Shown piece after piece: positions 46,427 through 60,807 of a stretch of 64,000 nt of DNA. The notes below the pieces were generated by a model. The model did no database searches, was not told the origin of the DNA, and saw only the letters and a list, made by a program, of their open reading frames with translations. The position numbers and the translations under genes were made by a program. The stretch comes from a virus (taxonomy: Duplodnaviria; Caudoviricetes), in the IMG/VR virus record IMGVR_UViG_3300046167_000798; one strand, written 5' to 3'. Numbering within the stretch: the stretch's first letter is position 1; every line of letters begins with the position of its first letter.

Positions 46427-48011
46427 TTATAGGTTTAAATCTTTAACGTAGATTTTACCATAGAATTCAGGTCTAACCATTTTCTTAGCGTATCTTGTCA
46501 TAACTCCTCTTCTTGGAGTGAAGTTAGTCGGGTCATACACTAGAGGTGTCATGATTAATGGTACATACGGTGCATAAACAGCTCCAGTTTCAAGGAAATT
46601 ACTTCCTTTAAATCCTAACAAGATTTCGTTTGAAGTCATGTAAGGGTTTTTGTAAACTGTATATCTGTTTGCAATAGAACCAACAGTAGTTACACCAGCT
46701 GCGAAAGATGAAGCATCTTTATCAGCAGATACACTAAATCCTGGGATAGATTCTAAAATAGTACATACATCAGGAGAAGCAACTACGAAGTTAGCTCCAC
46801 CTCTTAAAGTCAATTGGTGAATCTTGTTCGATACTTTGTTAAGTTTCGCACCAAGAGTCTGGAACCAAGAGTTCTTAGTATAAGCAGCAGCGTTTCCACC
46901 AGCTATCCATGAAGAACCATCGTACTCTTCACCTAAAGTTACTGACCAGTATTCAGTAGTTAAAGCATTAGCTTTTAACATATCAAGGATTTCAAGGTCA
47001 ATCTCTAGTGAGATGTACTCTGATAACATTGAAGTTAATTCAGCTTCAGCATCGATACTGTGGTAAGCATTTAAATCTTGAGCCAATTCAGGAGTCCATA
47101 CAGCCTTAAGTTTTCTTGTCTTAGCAACGATTGCTTCAGACTTCAACTCTAGGTCTACTTCTGGAATACCGATATCACTTGCAGGTTCTTGTGGAGAACT
47201 ATCTTCGAAGTCTCCTCTGTTTGCAGCGATTGGTTGTTGTGAATACTTTTACTGAATCTAAAGTTGTTGGGTTATTAGCACCATCAGCTTTTACGAAAAA
47301 GTAAAGGTTAGATGAATCAGCGTATGAGTGTGCAGAATACTGAGCAGCAATAACTGTATCAGCAACTACGAATGAACGTACACCATCAACATCAGGTCTA
47401 GTAAGTGTTGATTTAGCAACTCCTACTTTTGCAATTTGTCCAGCAGCGATAGAAGCTGAAAGACTTGAATCAAATCCAACATCAGACCATGATGCAGATG
47501 CGAATGATGCTACTGCAGCATTTGCTTCTGTTACGTCATTTACTGAATATCCGAATCTACCATCTCCGTAAAGACCGTTTACAGCAGAATCAGTTGAACC
47601 TAGGTCATTTCCTGTACCACCAAATAGTGATTTTCCACTAAATGCTGGGTTACCTGCTTGTGCAGTACCATACTTAAAGTCTAAGTAAAAAATTAGACCA
47701 GAAGGTAAGTTCATTGGTTGAACACTAACGAATTCTTTCGATGCGATTTCACCGAAGATTCTTCTTACTAGAGGAAGGGCTACACCACTCCACTCTTCGT
47801 TACCACCACCTGTACCGGTTGCAGTAGCTTCATCAAGCAATTGTTTTGCTTGGTTTTCTAACAATACAGATACCTGTGATTGTTCTCTCTCTCCTAAACC
47901 TTCAAGAAGTCCAGTTTGTTCCCATTTTCCTTTAAGTTCTCTTGTCTCAGCAAGCATTACTTGTTGTGGGTTCTTTCCTTCCATCAATTTAGATAAATCA
48001 AAATTTGCCAT
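46427..48011 (-). CDS. gp23: Major capsid protein (T4 gp23-like; about 527 aa after removing one insertion)
   Basis: ALPLVRRIF, FVSVQPMNLPSGLIFYLDF, AKTRKLKAVWTPELAQDLNAYH, YAPYVPL, PRRGVMTRY. Extra base in the T run at 47247-50. Confidence 0.95.
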
Positions 48012-48041: not shown

Positions 48042-49226
48042 TTAGTTAATATTAGCAAGTTTCTTGAATCTATCAGCCATCGTATTAGTTGATTCAGCTA
48101 TTACTTCTTTCGAAGGAGCAGTTGATGCAACTGGTTTAGATGCGAATGATTCAGTAATTTTCTTACTAACTTTTTGTTTTTTTGAAGTTCCATTAATCTT
48201 AAACGATTCAGCTAAAGTGCTAAATACAAGTTTAACTTCTCTTACATTACCTGTTCTGTCTAATGTCTCAACAACTTTCATTTTTTGGTCATTGTTTAAG
48301 TCATATGAACGGAATAATTTGTTTGTATAAAGTAATTTTGCATTAAGCAAGTTTACTTCATTGATTGTAGTTTTAAGTTCCTTGATTGTACTCATTGCTT
48401 CTTTTAATTCAGCTTGAGCTTCTTCAAGTTCATTAGTTTCTTCTACAACTTCTTCAGAAACTTCTTCATCTGATTCTTCTTCTTCTCCGTATCCCATTTC
48501 TTTTAGGATTTCGTCTAAGTCGATTTCTTCATCATCAGATTCTTCTGATACTTCTTCTTCTTCAGAGTGGTCTTCATCACCTTCTTCAGAAATTTCTTCT
48601 TCTTCAGATTCTTCACCTTCATTGTGGTGTTCATCTTCGTGAGATTCGATTTCATCAGATGCGATATCAGCAACTTCTTCCTCTTCTTCATCATCAAGTT
48701 CTTCTTCAAGTTCTTTAATGATAGCTTCAAGGTCAAGTTCATCTTCTTCTTCTTCTTCTGCTACTTCTTCTTTAGATTCTTCAGAGTGAGTTTCATCAAC
48801 TTCCTCATCAGATTCTTCTTCTTCAGCAACAACTTCAGATTCTTCAGATACTTCTTCTTCAGATACTTTTTCTTCTTCAGCTTCTTCAGCAACAACTTCA
48901 GTTTCTTCAGATACTTCTTCTGTTTCTTCAGATACAGTTTCAGTTGATTCTTCAACTTCTTCTTTATCTTCTTCTTCAGTTACAGTTTCTTCGGATACTT
49001 CTTCTGTAGCTTCTTCAACTGTTTCAGTTTCTTCTACTACTTCGTTTTCTTCAATTTCTTCTGAATCTTCACCTTCTTCAATTTCTTGTTGAAGTTTCTG
49101 AGATAGAATAGATTGTAAACGAGGTGTAAAAGCTTCCTCAAGAGCTATCTTAGCATTTGCAATTGCAGTTTCTCTAACGGCTTTTGCATCAGCGATAGCT
49201 TCTTTTAACAAATTTGAGTTTGCCAT
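48042..49226 (-). CDS. Prohead core scaffold protein (gp22-like), extremely acidic
   Basis: LLKEAIADAKAVRETAIANAK; about 250 aa Glu-rich; EVNLLNAKLLYTNKLF; immediately precedes the MCP. Confidence 0.85.
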   Translation of the reverse strand: MANSNLLKEAIADAKAVRETAIANAKIALEEAFTPRLQSILSQKLQQEIEEGEDSEEIEENEVVEETETVEEATEEVSEETVTEEEDKEEVEESTETVSEETEEVSEETEVVAEEAEEEKVSEEEVSEESEVVAEEEESDEEVDETHSEESKEEVAEEEEEDELDLEAIIKELEEELDDEEEEEVADIASDEIESHEDEHHNEGEESEEEEISEEGDEDHSEEEEVSEESDDEEIDLDEILKEMGYGEEEESDEEVSEEVVEETNELEEAQAELKEAMSTIKELKTTINEVNLLNAKLLYTNKLFRSYDLNNDQKMKVVETLDRTGNVREVKLVFSTLAESFKINGTSKKQKVSKKITESFASKPVASTAPSKEVIAESTNTMADRFKKLANIN

Positions 49227-49405: not shown

Positions 49406-49711
49406 TTATTTTCTTGTATTTTTATTTTTATCTTCTTTTTTTTGATTCTTTGGTTTTTTCTTCTTTTTAGTGTAAAACCTTATTGAAGTATCACCATCAT
49501 CTATCTTACCAAGTATGGTTTCCTTCTGTTGTTCTCTAATAGCTTGTTGTTTTTGTTTTCTACGAACTGTTGTGGGTTTTGTGTAGTATCGTCTTTCTCT
49601 CAGTTCTAAAAGATGTCCTGAATCAATTGTTCTTCTTTTTAATTTTTTTAATGCTCTGTTAATATCTCCTTTGATAACTTTAACAGAAACGATTGCATTT
49701 TTTTTACTCAT
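49406..49711 (-). CDS. rpsU: Phage-encoded ribosomal protein bS21 with basic C-terminal extension
   Basis: VKVIKGDINRALKKLKRR...ELRERRYYTKPTTVRRK matches the bS21 pattern (IxxALxRFKR, R..F.KP...R). Confidence 0.88.
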   Translation of the reverse strand: MSKKNAIVSVKVIKGDINRALKKLKRRTIDSGHLLELRERRYYTKPTTVRRKQKQQAIREQQKETILGKIDDGDTSIRFYTKKKKKPKNQKKEDKNKNTRK

Positions 49712-49764: not shown

Positions 49765-50109
49765 TTAAGAACCTTTACCTGTTCCTGATTTTCTTCCTTT
49801 GGTATGTGTAGAAACATTGATAGGTTTCTTACCCTGTCCTGCAGATGATTTACCACCTCTATTAGATTTATTTTGTGCTGCTCTTTTTCTACGAGTTGCA
49901 GATTCTTTTTCTTTTTTACTCATAGTTTTGGCTTTAGCGGCAGGAACACATTTAGCATATCCTTTTTTCTTACCACTTGTACCACATGGAGGATGTTTAC
50001 CACTTTTATCTTTTTTACCGATGTTAACCCACTTGGATTTAAACCAGTTTCTCAAATCTTCATTTGTGGTTTCTTCAAATATCTCGTCTATGATATCTTG
50101 TAATCTCAT
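49765..50109 (-). CDS. Basic predicted head-internal protein
   Basis: MRLQDIIDEIFEETTNE leader; DLRNWFKSKWVNI..HPPCG..YAKCVPA domain seen in T4-like phages. Confidence 0.7.
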   Translation of the reverse strand: MRLQDIIDEIFEETTNEDLRNWFKSKWVNIGKKDKSGKHPPCGTSGKKKGYAKCVPAAKAKTMSKKEKESATRRKRAAQNKSNRGGKSSAGQGKKPINVSTHTKGRKSGTGKGS

Positions 50110-51536
50110 TATTTACCTAATTGGAATAATTTTTCTTCTGCAGCTGCATTAGTTCTGTAATCGTAATGTTTTGGATTTACTCCAAAATCTTTTAGGGATT
50201 TTTCTAACCAAATTCTATACTTTCTTTTACCATACTTTTTTTCCATGGTATCAAGTACATCGTAAAATATCTTTTCAAATTTAACTTTTTTTACTAAATC
50301 TTTGATTTGTTTTTTATCTTCTACCATTGGATTATATCCTTGTGGTACACCATCATCCTTACCTTCAGCGAATTTCATTAATCCTCTTACTCTTTTTATT
50401 AATGTACCTGCAGGAATTCCATAGGTATCACTCATTACATCTTGAGTAAACTTGTTTGATAGGAAGTTAGATAATTCTTTTTTAGTTGCAATACCACTCT
50501 TAAAATCATCTCTAGCAATTCTATCTAATTCTTTAGCATCTATCTTACCTTTGAAGTATGCAGTAAGTGCATCTGCTTTGTAGTTGTATTTACCTTCGTT
50601 TACTGATTCATTTACATCATACATCTTACTGTTTCTACCAACAGATATAAGAGTTAAACCTTTATGTTTCTTACTTAACTTAGCAAATTCTTTTTGTGCT
50701 TTGTTGATATCTCCATCACCTGGTCTTTTACCACCATCTTGGTAATAAACTTTATCGTAATCTTGTTTCCTTTTATCAAACTTATCTACTATTACTAATA
50801 TTTCGTTTACTGATTCTCTTGTTAGTTTATATCCTTGTTTTGCAAGTGTTCCAACAAAATCACTTAAATCTTTTTTGTTCTTGAAGATTTTTATATCAAA
50901 GAAATCACTACCATCTTTGTGTTTCTTTTTTCCATCGTGATAAGATATTGTGTATTTTGCTTTACCAATACCATCTTGTCTTTTGAATCTTTTCTTACCT
51001 TCGTTCTTCTTACCCTTTTCCTCATATCCATTTGCGAATGCTGCTTTTCTTTGAGCATCTGATGAGAATCCTTCGTTCTTAGAAATTAATTCATCTACAT
51101 CTTTATGAACATCTTTGTAGTTGTTAAATTTTTGTTTACGAATAGCACTATAAATTGCTAATGAGTATTTTTGTGAGTTGTTGTGAATTTTACTTTTAAT
51201 AAAGTTACCAGATTTTTCAGCTGATTTAGAATCTTTCATTTCAACATCATTTACTGCAGTTGAAAATATTTTAAAAGCTTCAAAATGATTCTTCTTGTTA
51301 TAATCCATTACCATATCTTCGATAAAAGATAATGAAGATTTCATATTCTCTTTGTTTTGTTTGAAAACTTTGGTTGCCATAGGGTCACCTTTTTTCAAGA
51401 ATCGTACAAACTCTTCTTGTTTTTTCTTGACCTGACTCTTTTCATCAAAGTAATCTTTCTTTCTAAAAAGATTGAATACTTTTTCAAATTCTTTATTAGG
51501 GGATTTGAATCTTTCGTTGATTAACATTTTTTCCAT
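50109..51536 (-). CDS. Multi-module predicted head-internal polyprotein
   Basis: Modules separated by ESVNE/KNE/AE sites; may be fused to the upstream ORF. Confidence 0.65.
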   Translation of the reverse strand: MEKMLINERFKSPNKEFEKVFNLFRKKDYFDEKSQVKKKQEEFVRFLKKGDPMATKVFKQNKENMKSSLSFIEDMVMDYNKKNHFEAFKIFSTAVNDVEMKDSKSAEKSGNFIKSKIHNNSQKYSLAIYSAIRKQKFNNYKDVHKDVDELISKNEGFSSDAQRKAAFANGYEEKGKKNEGKKRFKRQDGIGKAKYTISYHDGKKKHKDGSDFFDIKIFKNKKDLSDFVGTLAKQGYKLTRESVNEILVIVDKFDKRKQDYDKVYYQDGGKRPGDGDINKAQKEFAKLSKKHKGLTLISVGRNSKMYDVNESVNEGKYNYKADALTAYFKGKIDAKELDRIARDDFKSGIATKKELSNFLSNKFTQDVMSDTYGIPAGTLIKRVRGLMKFAEGKDDGVPQGYNPMVEDKKQIKDLVKKVKFEKIFYDVLDTMEKKYGKRKYRIWLEKSLKDFGVNPKHYDYRTNAAAEEKLFQLGK

Positions 51537-52478
51537 CCTCCACCAGCTGCTTTATACTTTTTCGGCTGCCCAACCATTAGCGTATGCTGATGGGTAAACA
51601 TCAAATTTTTGTTTTGCTTGAGATTTATAAGAACTCCACTTAGATGGGTTAGTAGGACAATTTTTCTCCATTAGAGTTTCAACCTTTTGACCGAACTCAT
51701 ATAATGCAGTTTCTTGTTCGTTTAAATCTTTTACTTCTTTTATTGTAGTAGTGATAGAACCATCATCGTTTCTCATTGATACTGCTACAGGTTCTTCGTT
51801 TAAAGATTCGTTACATCCTCCTTCGGTTGTTCCATTACATCCACATCCACAATCTTCTTTGGATTCTAAAATACTATCCAATTTTTTACTAACATGAATT
51901 TCTATTCCTTTAGGTTTACTTGATATAATATATTCTTTAGATGTTTCGAACATACTATACCCATTTACTTTAAATTTAGATTTCCTTATAAAAGGACCAA
52001 TTTGTTTTAATAATGAATCGGCAAAAATTTCAGAAGGAGCATCTTCATTTATTGATAATTCTTTAGATTCGTTCATTCCTAAACGTTCTTTCATTTGTTC
52101 TTCTGATATCTCACCAATCTTATAGTATCTTGAAAGGATGTGTCCCATATCTTCATATAATCCACCCATTCTTTGGTCAAGTGCCTTAGCTTCAGAAGCA
52201 ACTTTATCGAATTGTTTACCCAACTTATCCAATTCACTCATGTTTCTTTTAATCGTGTGTTTATCAAACCAATCATCACCTTCGTGAATTGCTAATGTTC
52301 TAGCTGCTTCTGTAATACCACCAAGTGTTTCTGCCACTTGAGTAATATCAGATTTTCTATCCATTGATTCTTGATATTTGTTGTAAGTAGAAACGATTTC
52401 TAAGAAGTGTTTTTTAACTTCTAAAGAAAGAGGTCTCTTTTCTTCTGATTCGTTCATTAGTTGGGTTAATTTAATCAT
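51523..52478 (-). CDS. Predicted head-internal protein
   Basis: MIKLTQLMNE leader and AAGGAG SD. Removing one base at 51563 restores FDVYPSAYANGWAAKKYKAAGGGWK. Confidence 0.7.
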
Positions 52479-52488
52479 TGTACTCTCC

Positions 52489-53652
52489 TTAAAATAATTT
52501 TTTTAATTTTTTATCACCATAAACATCGGCGAAATACCATTTCTTATCTTTCATATTGTATAAATATATGTATTCTGCTCCACCACTTCTATCTGCAGTA
52601 TCTACATATTTACTAAAATCTTTCATATCACCTTTAGTTGGTTTCCCATTTTTGTAATATTCAATTTCTTTATCATCAAAGATTCCTCTTGCTCCACCCA
52701 TCTTGATTAGTTTAAGAACATCTTTATCACTTTTCATGTGATGTTTTAAACCTGGTTTCATATTTGATGGATATCCATCGTAGTGAACGTATGCAGAAAC
52801 AATCTTACCATTTCTACCAATTACACCAACTTGAGAACGAGTTCCTTCATTGATTATTGATTCTGGTAATAAATCTCTTAGATTTGTAGAGGTATTCTCT
52901 AAACTCATTTTCTTATCAAATAAATCTTTTAAATCTGCCCTTACATCAGCACTTCTAACAAAATCTGAACCAGAATCTTCAATATCATCTACAAACATTT
53001 TTGCAGTTTCTAAATCTCTTCCTTTAAGATATGGGAATATATCTGATTCTGCATAATCTCTCATTTCATCGCCATCTAAATCACCAATATTATTTTGAAC
53101 ATCATCTATCTGTGCATCAGAGTATTCATCTCTTACAGGTTCATCTTTCTTAGGTTCTTCTCCTTTAGGTTCTTCTTTTGGAGAATCTAAAGTCATTTTC
53201 TTATCAAATAAATCTTTTAAATCTTTTCTTAAATCAGCACTTCTATCAAAATCATCCCCTGCCGCATCAATATCATCTACATACATTTTTGCAAGTTCCA
53301 AATCTCTTCCTTTAAGATATGGGAATATATCTGATTCTGCATAATCTTGTATTTCATCACCAGGCATATCATCAATATTATTTTGAACATCTTCTATCTG
53401 TGCATCGGTTTGGTCATCCCTTACAGGTTCATCTTTCTTAGGTTCATCTTTCTTAGGTTTATCAAAGATGTTTACTTTAGGAGTATCTTTTTTATCATCA
53501 CCATCTTCTGAATCTTTTATTTTAGAATGAGTTCCAGCCTTTACAGCAGCATCTCTTGCATCTTTTGTTTTGAATACAGCAGTTTCTCCACTCTTTTTAG
53601 ATGTAGCAGTAAACGTTTCTTCTTCTTTTAATAAATCAGTTAATTTAATCAT
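52489..53652 (-). CDS. Predicted head-internal polyprotein: leader, duplicated acidic domain, GTRS/HYDGYP domain
   Basis: MIKLTDLLKE leader; two ~80-aa copies; IINE-GTRSQV..YVHYDGYP. Confidence 0.75.
   Translation of the reverse strand: MIKLTDLLKEEETFTATSKKSGETAVFKTKDARDAAVKAGTHSKIKDSEDGDDKKDTPKVNIFDKPKKDEPKKDEPVRDDQTDAQIEDVQNNIDDMPGDEIQDYAESDIFPYLKGRDLELAKMYVDDIDAAGDDFDRSADLRKDLKDLFDKKMTLDSPKEEPKGEEPKKDEPVRDEYSDAQIDDVQNNIGDLDGDEMRDYAESDIFPYLKGRDLETAKMFVDDIEDSGSDFVRSADVRADLKDLFDKKMSLENTSTNLRDLLPESIINEGTRSQVGVIGRNGKIVSAYVHYDGYPSNMKPGLKHHMKSDKDVLKLIKMGGARGIFDDKEIEYYKNGKPTKGDMKDFSKYVDTADRSGGAEYIYLYNMKDKKWYFADVYGDKKLKKLF
52903..53450 (-). repeat. Direct duplication of about 250 bp
   Basis: EPVRD..DAQI.DVQNNI.D..GDE..DYAESDIFPYLKGRDLE.AKM.VDDI...KKM occurs twice. 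Confidence 0.9.
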
Positions 53653-53837
53653 AATTTCTTTGTCTCCTTTTTGAGTGTATATAAATCAAGTTTACCATCT
53701 TCTGTTAACTTAACATCATAATTTGTTTTTCTTATATCATTGTGACCGCCTTTAAATGGAACACTTGCAACGTTTCTTGTTACTGTTCCTAATTTAATTT
53801 TATTATCACCTAAGTATTTTTTTATATCAAATGCCAT
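53649..53837 (-). CDS. Small hypothetical protein
   Basis: MAFDIKKYL start; overlaps the next gene by ATGA. Confidence 0.7.
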   Translation of the reverse strand: MAFDIKKYLGDNKIKLGTVTRNVASVPFKGGHNDIRKTNYDVKLTEDGKLDLYTLKKETKKL

Positions 53838-53840
53838 AAT

Positions 53841-54434
53841 TTAGTTTAATTCTGTTATAATTTCTCTCATCAAATCTTGTGATTTACACCACTCGTTACA
53901 AACTTCACCTTGTTTAATAAGTTGTTTGTTAACAGATTCATTCATCGGAGTCATAAATGCTCCATGTGTTGATGGATTAGAAACAAAATCCCAACCAATC
54001 AATTCAAAATCTTCACCTACTTGTACTTTACCACCAGATAGAGGTTCTACTGAACCCATACCTCTTGATGATATACCTAAAAGGATTCCTGCTTTAAGTA
54101 GTTCTTTTAAGATGTTACCAGATGGGGTCGGTAAAATCTCAACTGTTCCTACTAAATCATCATTATCCCAATGTATCTCTCTTACGTTATGAGATACGTT
54201 CTTTAGATTGATTACAGAAGAATCTGGATGGTCTAATTCACCAAGTGCTCTTCTTTCTTTAATAAGTGTTTCGTATTTTTTTGCTTCTCTCATCAAAATT
54301 TCTTTAGGATATATCCTTCCATTTTGATTTTCAGCACCTGCTCTTTGTAAAATACCCTTAACGATAGTTCTTCCACTCTCGTCCTCGTTTACTCTACCTT
54401 CGAATAGGTTTGTTTCTATTAATAAATTTGCCAT
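53841..54434 (-). CDS. gp21: Prohead core protease (T4 gp21-like)
   Basis: GILQRAGAENQNGRIYP, ALGELDHP, NVSHNV, LGISSRGMGS, DFVSNPSTHGA. Start at 54434 (TAATG). Confidence 0.93.
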   Translation of the reverse strand: MANLLIETNLFEGRVNEDESGRTIVKGILQRAGAENQNGRIYPKEILMREAKKYETLIKERRALGELDHPDSSVINLKNVSHNVREIHWDNDDLVGTVEILPTPSGNILKELLKAGILLGISSRGMGSVEPLSGGKVQVGEDFELIGWDFVSNPSTHGAFMTPMNESVNKQLIKQGEVCNEWCKSQDLMREIITELN

Positions 54435-54622
54435 TATGCTCCCCAACTTTTACGTTTTTTAAACAAATCAAAAAAGATTGCCGATACCTCTTGTCTGATG
54501 ATTTTTCTAATTTCATCTCTATCAGACTCATTGAGTTCCTCAGTAACTAAAAAATGGTTTACACCAAATTTAGCATTTGAGATTTCCTCATTGATGATAT
54601 CGAACAATTCACTTTTCTTCAT
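54434..54622 (-). CDS. Small prohead-region protein
   Basis: IINEE/LNES sites; IRQEVSAIFFDLFKKR motif; translationally coupled to the protease gene. Confidence 0.7.
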   Translation of the reverse strand: MKKSELFDIINEEISNAKFGVNHFLVTEELNESDRDEIRKIIRQEVSAIFFDLFKKRKSWGA

Positions 54623-54623
54623 C

Positions 54624-55058
54624 TTATTTTATCTTACCACTTCTTTCGAGTTCTTTTGCTGCACCGATTACATAACCCAATGCAGTTTTAAGGTCTCTAT
54701 TCATATATTTAGCAATCTTTTTGACTGCCATCATTACAATTCTTTTTTCTTCAGTAGAGTATCCTTCGTTTACCGACTCATCTTTTTTTTTTCCGTCTTT
54801 TTTCTCTATTGCCTTTTGAAGTGCCGGTGGTAATTTTTTCTGAGCATCTGTTAATTCAGAAACTTGTTCTTTTTTTGCTCCTCTACCTTTCCAAGTTTTT
54901 TCAATCTTGTTAAAGAATGCCTTCTTTTCTTCATCAGACATAGAAGGAATAGATTTACCTGCTTTTTCTAAGGCTCTTTTGAAAAATTCTTGATATTCAG
55001 ATTCTTCAATCATAGCTTCTCTAACTATGTTTTTTAAATGTTCTCTTGTTATTTTCAT
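54624..55058 (-). CDS. Predicted head-internal protein
   Basis: EYQEFFKRALEKAG..EEKKAFFNKI motif; ESVNE site; AGGAG SD. Confidence 0.7.
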   Translation of the reverse strand: MKITREHLKNIVREAMIEESEYQEFFKRALEKAGKSIPSMSDEEKKAFFNKIEKTWKGRGAKKEQVSELTDAQKKLPPALQKAIEKKDGKKKDESVNEGYSTEEKRIVMMAVKKIAKYMNRDLKTALGYVIGAAKELERSGKIK

Positions 55059-56101
55059 TTTTCTATCTCCTGTATAGTTCGAGCGATATTTATCAATCTC
55101 TCCTTTATCTTATAAATATGTTTATTTGTTCTTTTCCAATACTGATTGGAATCTAACTCATTCATTGTTTTAATTTTATTATACCAATTAAAAAACTTTT
55201 GAGTTTCTGCTAACTGATATTTTAATTCCTTTAAACCCATTGCCATCTTTTTATGAGGATGCATTGTTTCATCGTTTTTTAATTCTAACCAACGATTAAC
55301 TGGTCTCTTTACTTTAGCTTCGTTTATCGATTCTTTTAATCGATTCATTTTTTTATCAGTTACGAAATATGCAGAACCACCACCTGGAATTCCTTTTTCC
55401 ATATCTTGTAATCTCTTTACTTCTTTTTCAGCATCTTTAAATGTTCTGAATTCTTTTGGTGGTAATTTTTTATCTCTTTTTAAATCATATCCACCAACTA
55501 AAGATTTACCTCTTCCTCTACCTTTATTACGAGTAATATAGTATTTTGCTTCGTTTACTGATTCGTTAACTTTCTTTACGTGCTGAACAATCTTCTTAGC
55601 AAATGCAGGAGAAGTGATTTTAGCTATCTGAATAATAGTTTCTCTTCCATTAGGTCTGATACTCTTTACACTACCTCCACCTTTCATATCAGGAAACTTA
55701 CCATCCATTGAGTACCCATAATCTTTTATTGCAATAAGGTTACTACCTTTATCAAACATAAATTTGTAAGAACTTATTCTTGAACTATAAGAAATTCGTA
55801 TAGTTACTTCAAATTCACCTTCTTTATTTTTTTTATCAGAACCGATAACCATTCCGAATGATTCACCAGTTTTGTTGTTTCTACCTTTGATAGAAGCTTC
55901 ATCCATTTTACCAACTATTTTCATACCAAATTGAGTTGAAATCTTTTTCTTACGTTTTTTATCTTTAGCACCACCATCAGAAAATGCACCAGGTACATTA
56001 TACCCAGCTACATTGCCTGTTGCAGTTGCCTCATCCAATTCTTTTTCAACTTCTTGGATAAGTTCTTCTAAAAATTTATTAAGATTTTGTTCTATTGACA
56101 T
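55055..56101 (-). CDS. Predicted head-internal polyprotein
   Basis: LDE-ATATGNVAGYNVPGAF; modules bounded by MDE, ESVNE and ESINE. Confidence 0.7.
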   Translation of the reverse strand: MSIEQNLNKFLEELIQEVEKELDEATATGNVAGYNVPGAFSDGGAKDKKRKKKISTQFGMKIVGKMDEASIKGRNNKTGESFGMVIGSDKKNKEGEFEVTIRISYSSRISSYKFMFDKGSNLIAIKDYGYSMDGKFPDMKGGGSVKSIRPNGRETIIQIAKITSPAFAKKIVQHVKKVNESVNEAKYYITRNKGRGRGKSLVGGYDLKRDKKLPPKEFRTFKDAEKEVKRLQDMEKGIPGGGSAYFVTDKKMNRLKESINEAKVKRPVNRWLELKNDETMHPHKKMAMGLKELKYQLAETQKFFNWYNKIKTMNELDSNQYWKRTNKHIYKIKERLINIARTIQEIEK

Positions 56102-56951
56102 TTTTTATCTCCTTAACCAATTCATAAGACATCATTAAAGCCGAAACTTGGTCATCGGTAACTTTTTTACCAATTTTCTGTTTTTTCAAAACATTAATAG
56201 TTTCTTTCAACTTTATTTTTGTAATCTTATCTTTCATACTCTTATACATTGAATGTAATTCAGTAATAGTTTTGATTAATTCTGATTCAAAATATTCGTT
56301 GAACTTGGATGTGTTAGTAACATTATTAATATACTCTCTTAACAATCCTTTTTGTGATTTATCTAAAGTAGTATATTTTTTATTAAAAGTTTCAACAAGA
56401 ATCTTGTATGTCAATAACCTGAGGTCTTTCTCTTGTTTTCTATATTCTTCTACTAATTTATCTTGTTTAAGAACTTTAGAATCTTGGGAAATAGATGAAA
56501 TGTGCTCTACAATAGTAATTTTCGAATCGAATATATCCTTGACATCAAGAATATCATTCTTTTTACCTTCAAAAAGTTTATGAATTGAAGCTAAAATTTT
56601 ATAGTTTGTTACCGGGGAAGATAAAAAATTATTAATTTCAAAATTTTCTTTGATTGATTTTACAAGATTATATTTTTCTCGTTGAAGTTTTTTATAATTA
56701 ATTCTAGTATGTGCTTCTAATATAGCATCAATAAATTTTTCTGCTTTAGATTCACTATTATACTTTTCATTTATTAAAAGGTTAAATAATCTAAGTTCCT
56801 TAGACATTTCAGTACCTTTACCGTAGAATTCTCTGATTATTTCTTTTGACTTTTCTTCACTACCATTTAGTATTTCAACAGTAATCTGCCTTGTTAAAAG
56901 TTCAAAAAGGAAACCAGTATTCTTAAATTTTGAATGTTTTATTTTTTTCAT
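56079..56951 (-). CDS. Conserved prohead-region protein
   Basis: MKKIKHSKFKNTGFLFELLTRQIT; directly after the portal gene; late-promoter motif at 56992. Confidence 0.75.
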   Translation of the reverse strand: MKKIKHSKFKNTGFLFELLTRQITVEILNGSEEKSKEIIREFYGKGTEMSKELRLFNLLINEKYNSESKAEKFIDAILEAHTRINYKKLQREKYNLVKSIKENFEINNFLSSPVTNYKILASIHKLFEGKKNDILDVKDIFDSKITIVEHISSISQDSKVLKQDKLVEEYRKQEKDLRLLTYKILVETFNKKYTTLDKSQKGLLREYINNVTNTSKFNEYFESELIKTITELHSMYKSMKDKITKIKLKETINVLKKQKIGKKVTDDQVSALMMSYELVKEIKNVNRTKS

Positions 56952-57027: not shown

Positions 57028-58752
57028 CTACTCTTCAAGTATATTATCTTCATCTAACATACCTTTAATCTCATTTAAATATTTACGTTTTGATGCTATA
57101 CCTGATATCATTTTTATTGCTTTTTCTTCAGAAGTTCTTGAACGTTTTTTGTTTTTTTCCTTCTTTCCCAAAGGGTCTCTACCTAATGGATGTTTATCTT
57201 TCCCATAAGTACCACCTTCACGAGGCCTTCCACCCTTATTTTTTATTTCTTGTTTCAATGCTTCTATTGATTCTTCAATATCATCAGGTTCTTCATCTTC
57301 CATTGCAGGGTCATTACCCTCATCTTCAATAGAACGGAATCTAAATCTATCTTTTAAATCATCTAACATCATTACTCTTTGTTCATCAGATTCTCCTTCA
57401 GATAATTTAAATATATTTTCATATACCCAATCTTTAGATAACATATTTAATCCTTGAATATCTTGAGCCAATCTAATTTTTTCACTCCACAAGTTTACTT
57501 TCTCTTGTTCATAAATTGTAGATGGATTTACTAATTGTAATTCAAAGTTAGTCATTTCTGAATCTGTTATCCCTTGTGCATATAAATGAACAATGGCAAT
57601 TTTAGATAATTCTGAAATTACTGTTCTTTGGATTCTTTCAATTGTTCTTGCAAATCTTACATCTTCAGCAGCAAGTGTTGCTTTACCATTTACATTTTCT
57701 TCATATCCTAAATAAGCTCTTGGAATTTTTAATGCTGCAAATAATTTATTTTTTAAGTAATCAATATCTTCAATAGTTGCATACTCTAATCCTGAAAGAT
57801 TATCGATTTGTGTACCACTATCACCACCACGAACAGGAAGATAGAAATCTTCTGTTAGGTTTTGCATATTATACTTTAAGTTGTAATCACCAGTATTTCT
57901 ATCGATGAAAGGAACTTTCTTCATCTTGTTGATGATTCTCTGCATATAGTTATCCACTTCTGTTGGTGGGATGTTACCAATATCAATTTTGAAAACTCTT
58001 TTTTCAGGTGCTCTCATGATTCTATGGATTAACATAGCATCTTCCATTAGAGATAATTGTTTCCACAATCTTCGTCCATTCTCAATCATAGATTTACCAT
58101 ATGGTAACCAGTTAGTATCTGCTAACAACCTAAAGTGAGCGATTTCAAAGTTTTCGTATTCTTCTTTTCCATTCGGGTCTTCAGTAATTTTAAACTTTAC
58201 TGAATTTGGATTTGATGGGTCTGTTCTTTCTAATCTTTCTGTATTATAAACTGAATGAGGAGTAACATTTACGATACCTTTTCCTTCTGCAACTTCTAAA
58301 CCTAAAAAGAAATCTCCATACTTACACATATTTCTAGTCCATGGCCATAAGTTGAATTCTATATTAAGAACATCATAAAATAAGTTTACTAATATATCTT
58401 GAACTCGTTCATTATCAGAATGAATCATAAGAGTATCACCAAATTCGTTCTTTAGTGTTGATTCATCTGCATATATATCAAGAGCCGATGCAAGTATTGG
58501 GTCGTTATCCATCGCATCGTAATCTCTAAAAACTTCTCTACGAACTTGTTGGTATGCCATTGATTGAGCACCACCTGCTTGTTCAAAGAAACTTTTTTGT
58601 AGTTTCGTATATCTATCTCTTAGAGAAGATAAATTTGTTTGTTGTCTTTCATCGGTATCAACAACTTTTCTCTTACCATCTTTGTCAACAGTAACAACTG
58701 CTTGAGCTCTGAAGAGTTTCGTTAATCTACCAAAAAATGAAGTATCTGCCAT
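57028..58752 (-). CDS. gp20: Portal protein (T4 gp20-like)
   Basis: YDAMDNDPILASALDIYADE, LMEDAMLIHRIMRAPEKRVFKIDIGN, EDFYLPVRGG, LFAALKIP, EDVRFARTIERIQ. Confidence 0.95.
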   Translation of the reverse strand: MADTSFFGRLTKLFRAQAVVTVDKDGKRKVVDTDERQQTNLSSLRDRYTKLQKSFFEQAGGAQSMAYQQVRREVFRDYDAMDNDPILASALDIYADESTLKNEFGDTLMIHSDNERVQDILVNLFYDVLNIEFNLWPWTRNMCKYGDFFLGLEVAEGKGIVNVTPHSVYNTERLERTDPSNPNSVKFKITEDPNGKEEYENFEIAHFRLLADTNWLPYGKSMIENGRRLWKQLSLMEDAMLIHRIMRAPEKRVFKIDIGNIPPTEVDNYMQRIINKMKKVPFIDRNTGDYNLKYNMQNLTEDFYLPVRGGDSGTQIDNLSGLEYATIEDIDYLKNKLFAALKIPRAYLGYEENVNGKATLAAEDVRFARTIERIQRTVISELSKIAIVHLYAQGITDSEMTNFELQLVNPSTIYEQEKVNLWSEKIRLAQDIQGLNMLSKDWVYENIFKLSEGESDEQRVMMLDDLKDRFRFRSIEDEGNDPAMEDEEPDDIEESIEALKQEIKNKGGRPREGGTYGKDKHPLGRDPLGKKEKNKKRSRTSEEKAIKMISGIASKRKYLNEIKGMLDEDNILEE

Positions 58753-58793: not shown

Positions 58794-59183
58794 TTACCAT
58801 TTTCTACAAGACCAATACCTTGCTTTGTGTCTTGGTCCTGGTGAATCACAATTATGTCTAGCTCTAAATGCTTTTCTTGCATCTGGATTATTCTTTCGAA
58901 TAGACATTGTTTTTTCTCCTGATTTCTTTGCTGAACTTCCTCCATGTCCAAAGTTAACTTTTACAACGTTACCTTGTGGGTTTTTGACATATACCTTAAA
59001 TTTTTTAACATCACCTTGCATTGGTTTTCCAAGTTTAACTGTTCTACCTTGATACTCAGCTTCATTCATATCAGATTTGTATTCTTTCATGAACTCACAG
59101 AATTCTTTTATATCGTGATAATTTTCCACAGTATATTCTTCTGTGTATATTTCTTCGTTAAGTAAATTTTTTAATGATATCAT
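58794..59183 (-). CDS. Basic predicted head-internal protein
   Basis: MISLKNLLNE leader; AEYQGRTVKLGKP..KKFKVYV..VKVNFG..RARHNC..ARYWSC motif; AAGGAG SD. Confidence 0.75.
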   Translation of the reverse strand: MISLKNLLNEEIYTEEYTVENYHDIKEFCEFMKEYKSDMNEAEYQGRTVKLGKPMQGDVKKFKVYVKNPQGNVVKVNFGHGGSSAKKSGEKTMSIRKNNPDARKAFRARHNCDSPGPRHKARYWSCRKW

Positions 59184-59214: not shown

Positions 59215-60807
59215 TTATTTAATTAACCAAGTTAGGTCTTCATTACTATCTCCAACTCTCATTTTCCAAGGGTCATCTTCCATTGAAGAGTTACCTCCAA
59301 ATCCCATTCCACTAATATCTAAAGAGTGTGCTCCAATACCACCTAATGCTTGTTTTGTTAAATCAATTCCTTCTTGTCTTAATCTTAATGCAGTATCTCT
59401 AACCCATAATCCGATTGATAATGACATTGTTAAATCATCATTATAACCTCTCATAGCTTCAGCTCTGTTTCCACTCCATATAAATGTAAATAATTCATCT
59501 ATTGTTCTTTGTGAACGAATCGTTACTGATTTTTCTCTAATATATTGTTCCAACTTTGATATAATCAAAGGTCGTGTTTTGGAAGTTGTACTAAATCCTG
59601 CCGTTAATCCTCTATCTTGTGCTCTATATTTGTTTGTTAATTGATTTTCTACATCTACATACTTTAAATCCTTACTCATGTAGAAAAGATTCCCATATCC
59701 TCTATCAATTACTTGTTGTATTACTGCCCAACCAATATTTGCGTTCTCAATAACAAGTAATGCATTATTATATTCAGTTGAAAGTGATACAAGGAAGTTT
59801 CCAAAATCTTTTGTATCTAATTTACCTTTATATTCGGCAACTTGAGATGATTCTTCTATATCAATAACATGACATGCAGAATAATCCGAGGAATCTCCAC
59901 GAGCAACATCCGCTACAACCATATAAGCTTTATTATAGTTTGGATATTCCCATTTCCAAAGGTTTCCATCGAATCCTGTTTTCTCCATTGGTTCTTGTAC
60001 ATAAGATTCTTTATAAAACAAAAGGAGTTGTGGGTCTATCACAGTATCACCAGAAGAAACAAAATCACAATCACATTCTTGTGCCGCTCCTTTTGGTCCT
60101 AATAGTACCTCTTGTTCATCTCTCCAATTTTGGTCTCTTTCAGGATGAACACTCCAATGTAATCTAATTGAGTTAAATGTATTTGTTTGTTCTTCAGAAC
60201 CAACCCAAGTTTTGTGAAAGAAATTTCCGACACCATTTGGTGTTGAAAGGATAATCGCATTACCACCAGTCGATAGTGTTGATTGTGCTGATACCCAAAT
60301 ATCTTCAATCTTATCAATAAATGCCGCCTCATCAAATACTAATAGGGATAGTGCTTCAGAACGACCAGCATCTCCAGCGGCTGATGTTGCTTTTATCTGA
60401 GAACCATTCGAGTATCTCAGAGATAACTTATTATCCTCTACTGTTGTTTGTTTTAACCACGATGGTAAGTACTGATTCATTACACGAACCTTCGTTACAA
60501 GGTTCTTAGCAACCTCTTGTTTAGTTGCAATTACTAATACATTAAAATCTTGATTGAATAACATTTTCCAAAGTGAAAATCCCGCAGTTAAGGTAGAGAT
60601 ACCTGTTTGTCGAGATTTAAGGATAATATTGTATCTGTGTTCTGCAAATTGGTCTAATGTTCTTTCTTGAAATTGATATAAATGAAAAGGTATCTTACCA
60701 CGCACAGGATGTTGAATCATACAATATTTTTTCATAAAGTAGATTGGGTCTCCAGCACATTTCTGATACTCAAGTTTTATAATATCTTTTAAAGATTGTT
60801 TAGCCAT
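59215..60807 (-). CDS. gp17: Terminase large subunit (T4 gp17-like)
   Basis: Walker A LKSRQTGIST, Walker B LLVFDEAAF, STPNG, nuclease VADVARG and DDLTMS. Confidence 0.95.
   Translation of the reverse strand: MAKQSLKDIIKLEYQKCAGDPIYFMKKYCMIQHPVRGKIPFHLYQFQERTLDQFAEHRYNIILKSRQTGISTLTAGFSLWKMLFNQDFNVLVIATKQEVAKNLVTKVRVMNQYLPSWLKQTTVEDNKLSLRYSNGSQIKATSAAGDAGRSEALSLLVFDEAAFIDKIEDIWVSAQSTLSTGGNAIILSTPNGVGNFFHKTWVGSEEQTNTFNSIRLHWSVHPERDQNWRDEQEVLLGPKGAAQECDCDFVSSGDTVIDPQLLLFYKESYVQEPMEKTGFDGNLWKWEYPNYNKAYMVVADVARGDSSDYSACHVIDIEESSQVAEYKGKLDTKDFGNFLVSLSTEYNNALLVIENANIGWAVIQQVIDRGYGNLFYMSKDLKYVDVENQLTNKYRAQDRGLTAGFSTTSKTRPLIISKLEQYIREKSVTIRSQRTIDELFTFIWSGNRAEAMRGYNDDLTMSLSIGLWVRDTALRLRQEGIDLTKQALGGIGAHSLDISGMGFGGNSSMEDDPWKMRVGDSNEDLTWLIK

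Follow-up and report, generated by a model that had tools for sequence, protein, structure and literature searches.

The T4 prohead protease gp21 cuts after Glu in the motif L/I-X-E, converting core proteins into several fragments and taking targeting propeptides of 10–19 residues off the internal proteins (PMC9026906). These internal proteins (IPI, IPII, IPIII and Alt, with their CTS; PMC9026906) resemble the genes described here in their S77 protease, in a cut after Glu of L/I-X-E (predicted here), in short N-terminal leaders that end in this motif, and in combining small basic cargo with an acidic scaffold and a repertoire that varies among related phages. In T4 experiments, foreign proteins fused to the CTS were both packaged and delivered (PMC9026906). 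T4, however, makes one protein per gene and removes a single N-terminal piece, whereas here several unrelated modules share a single frame, separated by putative cut-site linkers that are fixed at the DNA level, and have conserved anchors at either end. No sequence match linked the T4 internal-protein families (IPI, IPII, IPIII and Alt, from Pfam and PHROG) to any ORF or to any of our 118 module representatives, and cleavage and injection, which are proven for T4, are predicted here.

Other described systems share single features with this locus. In the giant phages phiKZ, 201phi2-1 and SPN3US (PMC10052503, PMC5694885), a related prohead protease likewise recognises a motif of three residues and cuts after its Glu; processing affects many head proteins, in some cases at more than one place, and a large mass of ejection protein accompanies the DNA into the head. 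There, however, the repeated cuts break up long N-terminal propeptides, so that each gene gives one mature protein, and a uniform linker, a cassette architecture or shuffling has not been reported in the literature. Polyvalent proteins (Iyer et al. 2017, PMC5512222) likewise join disparate domains in one polypeptide that is predicted to be processed by proteases and to enter the host with the DNA in an arms-race setting. They carry recognisable enzymatic domains and often an embedded zincin-like peptidase that is predicted to process them, whereas the modules here are small orphans, and processing here would use a separate capsid maturation protease and a uniform linker with DNA-level identity. 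The Gag/Pol-type polyproteins of RNA viruses and retroviruses are also single products in which a virus-encoded protease recognises and cuts short consensus sites while particles assemble or afterwards, but they hold a fixed essential set in place of accessory, hypervariable, combinatorial content. Finally, PeSL cassettes place short conserved DNA words between unrelated sequences at the sites where closely related T4-type phages exchange material, and these promoter/terminator cassettes mediate modular gene shuffling (Arbiol et al. 2010, PMC2839356; Comeau et al. 2014, PMC4122927). PeSLs are intergenic and regulatory (early promoter plus stem-loop terminator) and move whole genes; the word described below is 15–16 nt long, lies in coding sequence, where it reads in frame as a putative protease site, and appears to move domains within and between ORFs.

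The analysed stretch of DNA (the window) comes from a marine T4-like phage and is 64 kb long, and its cargo ORFs, lettered A, B, C, F and G, all lie on the minus strand: A (50109–51536, 475 aa), B (51552–52478, 308 aa), C (52489–53652, 387 aa), F (54624–55058, 144 aa) and G (55055–56101, 348 aa). A first-pass annotation had outlined A, F and G correctly and placed the low coordinate of B at 51523, about 29 nt off; every cleavage-type site that it named in A, B, F and G was found in the translations. Between C and F lies the prohead protease gene (53841–54446, minus strand; T4 gp21 family, MEROPS/Pfam S77). Also on the minus strand are a very acidic scaffold protein in a gp22-like position (48042–49226, net charge −112, pI 4.1) and a gp23-like major capsid protein (46427–48011, the gene being split in the window). 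A Portal_T4 Pfam match (2.1e-68), the gene order and the capsid protein homology agree on a head module, in which the cargo genes sit near the gp67/gp68 and gp22 positions, with the portal and capsid genes on either side. Genes H, G, F and E share the genomic position of gp67/gp68; H, G and E had no Pfam or PHROG match. On balance, we favour reading G, F, C, B and A as cassette polyproteins, in which conserved anchors are combined with interchangeable small modules ending in E-S-V/I-N-E, and which would serve as cargo of the head.

Gene G, with sites at LDE24, MDE68, ESVNE184 and ESINE261, begins with a propeptide-like leader (residues 1–24, ending ELDE) and an N-terminal anchor (residues 25–68, 55898–56029) ending MDE. 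Two inserted modules follow (residues 69–184, 55550–55897, and residues 185–261, 55319–55549), which end in the linkers ESVNE (residues 180–184, 55550–55564, DNA GAATCAGTAAACGAA) and ESINE (residues 257–261, 55319–55333, DNA GAATCGATAAACGAA), before a C-terminal anchor (residues 262–348, 55058–55318) that starts AKVKRPVNRW. Orthologues of 149–887 aa keep both anchors constant around 0 to about 8 modules, and the shortest join MDE or ELNE straight to AKVKRPVNRW. Gene F consists of a conserved N-terminal anchor (residues 1–98) ending DESVNE (ESVNE98, 54765–54779) and a mobile module (residues 99–144, 54627–54764) that in other phages also occurs at the end of gene C; its orthologues span 63–345 aa. 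In gene C, a leader (residues 1–10, MIKLTDLLKE) precedes an acidic domain duplicated in tandem (residues 11–269), the site PESIINE and a module (residues 270–387, 52492–52845) that elsewhere is a free-standing phage protein. Residues 270–380 match phrog_1987 (5.8e-16) over profile positions 2–120 of 128, so that a cut after INE would restore the native start of the module; the nearest clusters include "T4-LIKE GC: 66" proteins, and at one related locus (L008) the gene C leader is fused directly onto a module of this type.

Gene B carries a leader (residues 1–10, MIKLTQLMNE), an anchor (residues 11–137, ending GMNE), a window-specific insert after SINE145 (residues 146–205, 51864–52043), a Cys-rich piece ending ESLNE228 (linker DNA 51795–51809) and a C-terminal part (residues 229–308); most orthologues match residues 1–140 and 203–307, without the insert. 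Gene A is the most subdivided: a leader (residues 1–8, INE8), an N-terminal module (residues 9–155, SKNE155), a peptide (residues 156–179, beginning GFSSDAQRKAAFANGY and ending KKNE179), three modules (residues 180–245, 50802–50999; residues 246–314, 50595–50801; residues 315–406, 50319–50594) and a C-terminal anchor (residues 407–475). The first two of these modules end in ESVNE245 (linker residues 241–245, 50802–50816, DNA GAATCAGTAAACGAA) and VNESVNE310/314 (linker residues 310–314, 50595–50609, DNA GAATCAGTAAACGAA), the third in PMVE (MVE406), with an additional site, FAE, at about residue 394. HMMER searches recovered 802 cluster representatives related to gene A, with match boundaries clustered near residues 150, 178, 245, 310 and 395–405, and its modules occupy many different positions in proteins of 91–946 aa. 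Each gene is defined by its anchors: the 10-residue leader M-I/K-K-L-x-x-L-L-N/K-E in B and C, a helical anchor at each end of G, an N-terminal anchor in F and a C-terminal one in A. The first-pass annotation had proposed a plug-in system open to any small domain; plug-in behaviour and module exchange are well supported, but the wording "any small domain" goes too far, since conserved anchor parts, which that annotation had overlooked, are needed in every gene as well.

Genes contain from 0 to about 8 inserted modules, mostly of 50–110 aa (median 76 aa), and the 118 module families include many that occur in several of the five genes. Comparison of 22 loci revealed 21 architectures (median Jaccard index of 0.07 for non-anchor modules), although the portal and protease were 77–97% identical. 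Modules move between genes: residues 69–184 of gene G are present in gene A of locus L020 at 95.7% nucleotide identity, with flanks at 85–88%, and two gene A modules are present in gene G of L008 in reversed order.

The points of exchange coincide with a conserved DNA word. In the window, the 15-mer GAATCAGTAAACGAA had seven matches with at most 2 mismatches, six of them at 50.1–56.1 kb, compared to 0.30 expected from shuffled sequences, and 0 of 100 shuffles reached seven. Of 98 distinct junction types, 68 carried the identical 15-mer, and its codon choice was strongly biased toward TCA (86%, background 38%), GTA (99%, background 47%) and AAC (83%, background 36%). Information content fell to background immediately outside the word, delimiting 15–16 nt, and the word remained fixed at silent positions while the modules had diverged to dS values of 0.3–1.2. 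Ends of blastn homology were concentrated at the sites, with 41% no more than 18 nt away from sites that account for 12% of gene length. At the 55550–55564 linker, homology to L020, L007, L004, L019, L018 and L006 begins or stops, and the linkers at 55319–55333, 50802–50816 and 50595–50609 were likewise supported by the breakpoint comparison. Hence the earlier proposal that a recurrent DNA linker seeds exchange is well supported by silent-site conservation and by breakpoints at linkers, and module boundaries in homologues, which that proposal expected at the linkers, do coincide with them, as judged from indels, from swapped modules and from the points where DNA homology breaks off.

When IMG/VR was scanned for the DNA word by itself, at least 120 stretches were returned, including 116 new loci. 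Among the matches listed for these loci, 185 of the 192 word copies fell in open frames of 100 or more codons and were read there as ESVNE, unlike the intergenic PeSL cassettes, and 65 of the 66 spacings between neighbouring copies were multiples of 3. Repeated 15-mers might in principle generate chimeric metagenome assemblies and a shuffling that is not biological, and most comparison sequences are indeed metagenome contigs. We regard such an artefact as extremely improbable: the same picture comes from hundreds of independent contigs, taken from different samples, the window itself has the architecture, and the junctions stay in frame, while the excess of matches over shuffles argues against chance. 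Moreover, assemblers normally work with k-mers longer than a 15-nt repeat. Silent-site conservation could also reflect copy-and-paste ancestry or an RNA- or translation-level constraint, and 15 nt of identity is short for homologous recombination, which counts against a role in exchange. Even so, a dual use of the linkers, as protease sites and as in-frame recombination seeds in head-loaded polyproteins, seems to us the probable reading.

At the peptide level, real ORFs of the window contain six copies of ES[VIL]NE, in genes A, B, F and G, and all six lie within 50.1–56.1 kb; one further copy is in a non-coding frame outside this interval. In a comparison set of 80 related marine IMG/VR loci, we counted 198 copies across 99,027 aa of cargo ORFs and none across 145,120 aa of core ORFs. 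The looser motif [VILM]xE showed no enrichment (30.9 per 1000 aa in cargo versus 32.5 in core), indicating that only the specific linker is statistically remarkable and that cut sites are not identifiable from their sequence by this motif. Junctions were also defined by module start, independently of the linker motif. Among the 42 distinct hexamers that precede the GKKRF/Y module, P1 was Glu in 41, as a Glu-specific site would predict, the remaining one being the initiator Met, and P3 was V/I/L/M in 37; P2, P4 and P5 were variable, with variants such as KDKKNE, DGNMRE, VKGIDE and KVTFEE. Junctions of the LVIVDKFDK module had Glu at P1 in 13 of 13 and V/I at P3 in 13 of 13. This near-invariance of P1 and the character of P3 even where the linker sequence differs, the fit to the published L/I-X-E rule (PMC9026906) and similar sites at the expected cuts of the capsid propeptide and the protease C-terminal tail indirectly support reading the linkers as gp21-type sites.

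The protease itself is a true S77/gp21 homologue by sequence comparison, matching Pfam Peptidase_S77 (PF03420) with 92.4 bits (cut-off 27, E = 3.4e-26, profile positions 45–196 of 198) and the T4 gp21 structure 5JBL (1.6e-15). In the alignment to 5JBL, an inactivated mutant, ELDHP and GISSRG stand opposite T4 gp21 segments. Its own tail reads PMNE/SVNK directly after the protease domain (the slash marks a candidate cut), with the counterparts LNE/G and LKE/S in phages immuto and Mel-JY01. The predicted capsid propeptide site, LLDE61/ATATG, placed by analogy with T4 gp23, is of the same sequence type as ELDE24/ATATG of gene G. Short leaders ending in L/I-X-E were retained in 44 of 45 orthologues of B, 36 of 49 of C and 50 of 53 of ORF 58794–59183 (MISLKNLLNE); some gene A orthologues are without any N-terminal leader, which we counted against the cargo reading. 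Domains strung like beads might instead work as one uncut protein, such as an internal or decorative protein of the head or a polyvalent protein that is injected, with ES[VI]NE serving as a flexible conserved spacer and recombination word; multi-domain polyvalent proteins of this sort are known (PMC5512222), and the DNA word is conserved beyond the need of the peptide, such that a DNA-level role alone could keep it. Typical spacers, however, are rich in Gly, Ser and Pro, whereas changed linkers here keep P1 Glu and an aliphatic P3, the signature of gp21 sites, and the same type of site recurs in leaders, at the expected capsid cut and after the protease domain, making uncleaved chains a poor prospect.

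The modules are basic (median pI 9.5, 75% above 8.5) and evolve under purifying selection (dN/dS 0.14–0.53). In the structural model, residues 179–245 of gene A fold on their own into a beta-beta-beta-alpha domain (mean pLDDT 79.9) with an SVNE tail below 50; the anchors are modelled as helical, and the whole gene G model was poor (mean pLDDT 51.5). The first-pass annotation had suggested injected early effectors such as anti-defence factors; searches of the 118 module representatives against Pfam and PADLOC gave no significant match and no recognisable function for any module. No Pfam hit surpassed E = 1e-6, the value of a low-complexity repeat family, and peptidase or other enzyme domains were absent, which sets the modules apart from the polyvalent-protein class. 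Our literature searches found no virion proteomics for any relative and no published description of such shuffled head-cargo polyproteins.

Cutting by itself does not imply delivery, since T4 core proteins gp22, gp67 and gp68 are cut and their fragments mostly leave the head (PMC9026906). By analogy, the modules could be disposable prohead-core or scaffold filler that sets core volume and shape, is cut so that the pieces exit before DNA packaging, and never reaches the host. The location of the genes, the helical anchors and a faint match of gene F to a head scaffolding PHROG (E = 0.0077) fit this possibility. Filler would nevertheless need neither some 118 distinct folded families under purifying selection nor a near-complete turnover of modules among phages with 90% identical heads, and other phages carry one of the modules as a gene of its own. 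Folded basic domains of 6–12 kDa are also nearer to T4 IPI–III (basic, 8–20 kDa, retained) than to the expelled gp22 and gp67 peptides, and we consider filler unlikely.

Under the head-cargo reading, the polyproteins would be made late, alongside the head genes, and join the prohead core through their anchors or leaders, aided by attraction of the basic modules to the acidic scaffold, which is likely their electrostatic partner. The protease would then cut after Glu of [V/I/L/M]-x-E to release domains of 6–12 kDa, which, in the manner of T4 internal proteins, may be kept beside the DNA and probably pass into the host together with it. With the linker DNA reduced to the single word GAATCAGTAAACGAA(G), a crossover between linkers, either intragenomic or between co-infecting phages, would keep the frame and remake the cut site, allowing modules to be freely gained, lost and moved. 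If this is true, these phages may possess a natural plug-in system by which proteins are loaded into the virus head.

The linker ES[VIL]NE occurred six times in the real ORFs of the window, always within 50.1–56.1 kb, where the cargo polyprotein genes A, B, C, F and G lie beside a gp21-type prohead protease. A search with the corresponding DNA word GAATCAGTAAACGAA, allowing up to two mismatches, returned seven matches against 0.30 expected, six of them being the ES[VIL]NE linkers. For comparison we assembled 80 IMG/VR contigs, apparently mostly marine, with a protease 84–99% identical to that of the window. In these loci the cargo ORFs (99,027 residues) contained 198 copies of the motif, whereas none occurred in the 145,120 residues making up portal, terminase, capsid, protease, scaffold, S21 and the head-region ORF H. 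A chance origin of the linkers was rejected on these cargo and core counts and on the expectation for the DNA word. The generic pattern [VILM]xE showed no enrichment in cargo ORFs and was discarded as a mark of cargo, so that the remarkable feature is the specific linker and not the density of possible gp21 sites. All protease sites listed by the first-pass annotation, which had read these ORFs as head-cargo polyproteins of small modules, were present in the window ORFs, and its ORF coordinates held except for B, which ends at 51552 and not at 51523.

The window is AT-rich (about 31% GC) and represents a portion of a large T4-related phage, with all genes of the stretch examined on the minus strand. 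In the direction of transcription, the large terminase (59215–60807) comes first, followed by a 129-aa ORF (58794–59183), the gp20-type portal (57028–58752; Pfam Portal_T4, 2.1e-68), H (56079–56951), G (55055–56101), F (54624–55058), the small head-region ORF E (54434–54622) and the prohead protease (53841–54446), which matched Peptidase_S77 at 3.4e-26 and the T4 gp21 structure 5JBL at 1.6e-15. Downstream lie a further head-region ORF, D (53649–53837), then C (52489–53652), B (51552–52478), A (50109–51536), a 114-aa ORF (49765–50109), a bS21-like gene (49406–49711), a very acidic scaffold protein (48042–49226; net charge −112) and the gp23-type major capsid protein (46427–48011), all on the minus strand. 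The phage-encoded ribosomal protein bS21, whose gene separates the cargo genes from that of the scaffold, has the same place in Microcystis phage Mel-JY01, which together with Flavobacterium phage immuto is the nearest named phage (portal identity about 50%). No GenBank phage matched the region by megablast, and the protease is absent from the nearest record, G001. The capsid gene is split near 47246 into two ORFs (47199–48011 and 46427–47146, minus strand) and carries one extra base relative to the intact gene of a related locus, L020 (AAAAGTATT against AAAA-TATT), which may reflect a genuine frameshift or else an error of sequencing or assembly.

Scanning IMG/VR with the 16-mer alone detected at least 120 stretches, from which 116 loci were newly fetched. 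Among the matches listed, 185 of 192 copies of the 15-mer in these loci read ESVNE within open frames of 100 codons or more, 65 of 66 spacings between neighbouring copies were multiples of three (mostly 159–450 nt), and 86 of the 116 loci carried homologues of the window's head genes, some copies being located in other long ORFs. The in-frame copies and spacings in newly fetched loci led us to reject an assembly artefact. On two related contigs the 15-mer also joined modules in other long ORFs, a 723-aa ORF of L092 (1522–3690, minus strand) and a 715-aa ORF of L141 (9172–11316, plus strand), the latter locus encoding a relative of the GKKRF module described below. No match to the window's head-module proteins was found in the L092 locus, indicating that the linker system there reaches beyond the genes studied here.

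To define junctions at the protein level without using the motif, we took the start of a recognisable module as the junction. Glu directly preceded the GKKRF/Y module in 41 of the 42 different hexamers found upstream of it, the exception having an initiator Met at this position, and P3 was V, I, L or M in 37 of the 42, with the other positions variable (KDKKNE, DGNMRE, VKGIDE, KVTFEE). At LVIVDKFDK module junctions, both P1 Glu and P3 V/I were found in 13 of 13 cases. As judged from sequence, this pattern is that of the published gp21 rule, cutting after Glu in L/I-X-E (PMC9026906). The same type of site was present at the expected propeptide cut of the capsid protein (LLDE|ATATG; VSE|A and ISE|A in relatives) and directly after the protease domain (PMNE|S; LNE|G and LKE|S in relatives). 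The N-terminal part of the capsid protein matched no PDB sequence, so the predicted propeptide site at LLDE|ATATG rests on analogy. Residues 270–387 of C matched the free-standing phage family phrog_1987 from profile position 2 (5.8e-16), and the predicted cut after PESIINE would thus restore the natural start of that protein; in another related locus, L008, a 10-residue leader is almost directly fused to the same module.

At the DNA level, 103 of 163 ES[VI]NE linkers carried an identical 15-mer, as did 68 of 98 junction types when each pair of flanking families was counted once. Codon choice in the linkers departed from background, with TCA used for 86% of Ser (background 38%), GTA for 99% of Val (47%) and AAC for 83% of Asn (36%), and the information content fell to background just outside the word except for G at +1. 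Synonymous divergence inside the modules was 0.3–1.2, and the silent sites of the linkers are therefore held or homogenised.

The cargo genes combine fixed and exchangeable parts. Alignment of 31 G orthologues, from a comparison of all those available, revealed a fixed N-terminal part, consisting of a leader ending ..ELDE and a stretch from ATATGNVAGY.. to ..GKMDE, and a fixed C-terminal part from AKVKRPVNRW.. to ..IQEIEK, with zero to about eight unrelated modules between them, each with a terminal ES[VI]NE. G orthologues varied from 149 to 887 aa, compared with portal and protease steady at 77–97% identity, and in the shortest forms the C anchor directly followed MDE or ELNE. Conserved anchors were located at the N terminus in F and at the C terminus in A; B consists of a leader, an N anchor and a C part, and C of a leader and an acidic domain, usually ending in a GTRS.. 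module. The sequence of G after LDE24 (ATATGNVAGY; 55958–56029, minus strand) resembles that of the capsid protein after predicted LDE61 (ATATGTGGG; about 47800–47830, minus strand), so that the two proteins would have similar mature N-termini; conservation of the TG-x-V-x-GY-x-TP-x-AF motif of G extends to phages immuto and Mel-JY01.

A 10-residue N-terminal leader, M-I/K-K/S-L-x-x-L/I-L/M-N/K-E, was common to B (52449–52478), C (53623–53652) and the 129-aa ORF (58794–59183), all on the minus strand, and was retained in 44 of 45, 36 of 49 and 50 of 53 orthologues, respectively; its length and end motif are reminiscent of the T4 capsid targeting sequence. C also holds a 288-nt tandem repeat (52898–53449, minus strand; 1.9 copies, 86% matches) corresponding to a duplicated acidic domain of about 96 aa, in place of which orthologues carry one, two or other acidic inserts. 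The B protein of the window ends in ..ANGWAAEKV (51552–51600, minus strand), and most orthologues run on as ..ANGWAAKKYKAAGGGWKKC, the C-terminus of the window copy being slightly truncated or altered.

The first-pass annotation had suggested that linker DNA could seed module exchange and had named a mismatch between module boundaries and linkers in homologues as grounds for refutation; on comparison, swaps and homology breakpoints fell on the linkers, and the idea was not refuted. Gene A of L020 contained residues 69–184 of G, with 95.7% nucleotide identity compared to 85–88% for the flanking orthologous DNA, and gene G of L008 contained two modules of the window's A in reversed order. Blastn alignments of the window with its closest relatives began or ended at linker words or at the MDE68 codon. 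Across all loci, 41% of 576 internal homology ends fell within 18 nt of [VILM][ND]E sites covering 12% of gene length, and strict linkers accounted for 21% of ends with 5% of the length; more clusters of ends lay at VSE in F, KKNE in A and ILE in B. HMMER match boundaries in gene A clustered near residues 150, 178, 245, 310 and 395–405, and its 180–245 module lay anywhere from position 2 to 788 in proteins of 91–946 aa. Identity over 15 nt is short for homologous recombination, and yet the sequence breakpoints and silent-site identity are hard to explain unless exchange occurs at, or copies, the word. The 114-aa ORF (49765–50109, minus strand) is a separate gene in the window, headed by a leader of its own (MRLQDIIDE..), and in L070 (10293–12284) and L072 (12562–14439) it forms an in-frame C-terminal extension of gene A, indicating that free genes and polyprotein modules interconvert.

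Cutting all cargo ORFs of the 80 loci after [VILM][ND]E and clustering the pieces yielded 810 segments in 118 families, 54 of these being singletons, with many families present in two to four of the five cargo genes. The 22 loci spanning portal to capsid displayed 21 different architectures, with a median Jaccard index of 0.07 for non-anchor modules. Representative modules were small and basic (median 76 aa, median pI 9.5, 75% above pI 8.5), pairwise dN/dS was 0.14–0.53 in 18 families, and 802 clusters at 50% identity matched gene A in a HMMER scan of 1.84 billion representatives. The main alternative, in which the pieces would be dispensable core protein lost from the head, appeared less likely in view of the number, selection and turnover of the modules. 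The 179–245 module of A was modelled from 30 aligned homologues as a compact three-strand-plus-helix domain (mean pLDDT 79.9) whose last four residues, SVNE, fell below 50; the AlphaFold model of whole G was poor (mean pLDDT 51.5), with all linkers in low-confidence stretches. Foldseek searches of the A model against PDB and BFVD yielded nothing at E ≤ 0.001 and hence no functional assignment. Pfam and PADLOC returned nothing significant for the 118 module representatives, PHROGs matched the ORFs only with unknown-function families (for C, B and two small ORFs), and in the ESM Atlas G 69–184 had no usable match and C 270–387 fell in unnamed viral clusters; none of these searches gave any module a recognisable function. 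Among short stand-alone copies of G modules, mostly contig-end or frameshifted fragments, no clean linker-free copy was found; one 132-aa ORF consisted of a leader, a single module and a trailing linker. The G module at residues 185–261 (55319–55549, minus strand; AKYYITRN..GRGRGKSLVGG) aligned weakly, at 29% identity, with the GKKRF family of A (50802–51002, minus strand), and the two may be distant paralogues.

Taken together, our analysis is probably best explained by dual-use linkers in head-loaded polyproteins. As a peptide, the linker would be cut by the capsid protease; as a fixed 15–16-nt DNA word for recombination, it would keep all crossovers in frame. Loading, cutting, retention and injection are all proposed by analogy with T4, where short leaders direct internal proteins to the core and are removed by gp21, basic internal proteins remain with the DNA before being ejected, and delivery extends to foreign proteins carrying a fused leader (PMC9026906). 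More tentatively, the dual-code linker together with anchors and leaders might constitute a natural self-diversifying display library, in which small proteins between linkers would be loaded, freed and injected before gene expression, providing the population with hundreds of ready-made, interchangeable effectors, for example mini-proteins for anti-defence or host takeover.

The proposed system would work like the T4 CTS/internal-protein system. Its DNA side is similar to PeSL-mediated shuffling (PMC4122927), except that exchange here is in frame and at domain scale, and in idea it is similar to polyvalent proteins (PMC5512222), from which it differs in having neither known domains nor an embedded peptidase. 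Literature searches on the motif and on polyproteins as phage cargo turned up no account of such a system, and those on Mel-JY01 found nothing; papers mentioning phage immuto, as judged from titles and abstracts, included no virion proteomics. Provided that the modules are excised and delivered, abundant marine phages would hold a large combinatorial pool of small injected proteins, comprising no fewer than 118 families in the 80 loci and, for gene A alone, 802 matching clusters, and such modules would be prime candidates for anti-defence or host-takeover factors acting before phage gene expression. The order anchor, linker, cargo, linker would also be a natural design rule for placing several proteins in one T4-type capsid, which is currently engineered by single CTS fusions, one by one. 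If confirmed, selection would here act on a single short sequence in two capacities, protease site and in-frame recombination signal, which is rare in nature, and this dual selection would provide a specific mechanism by which phages could evolve modularly at the domain level.
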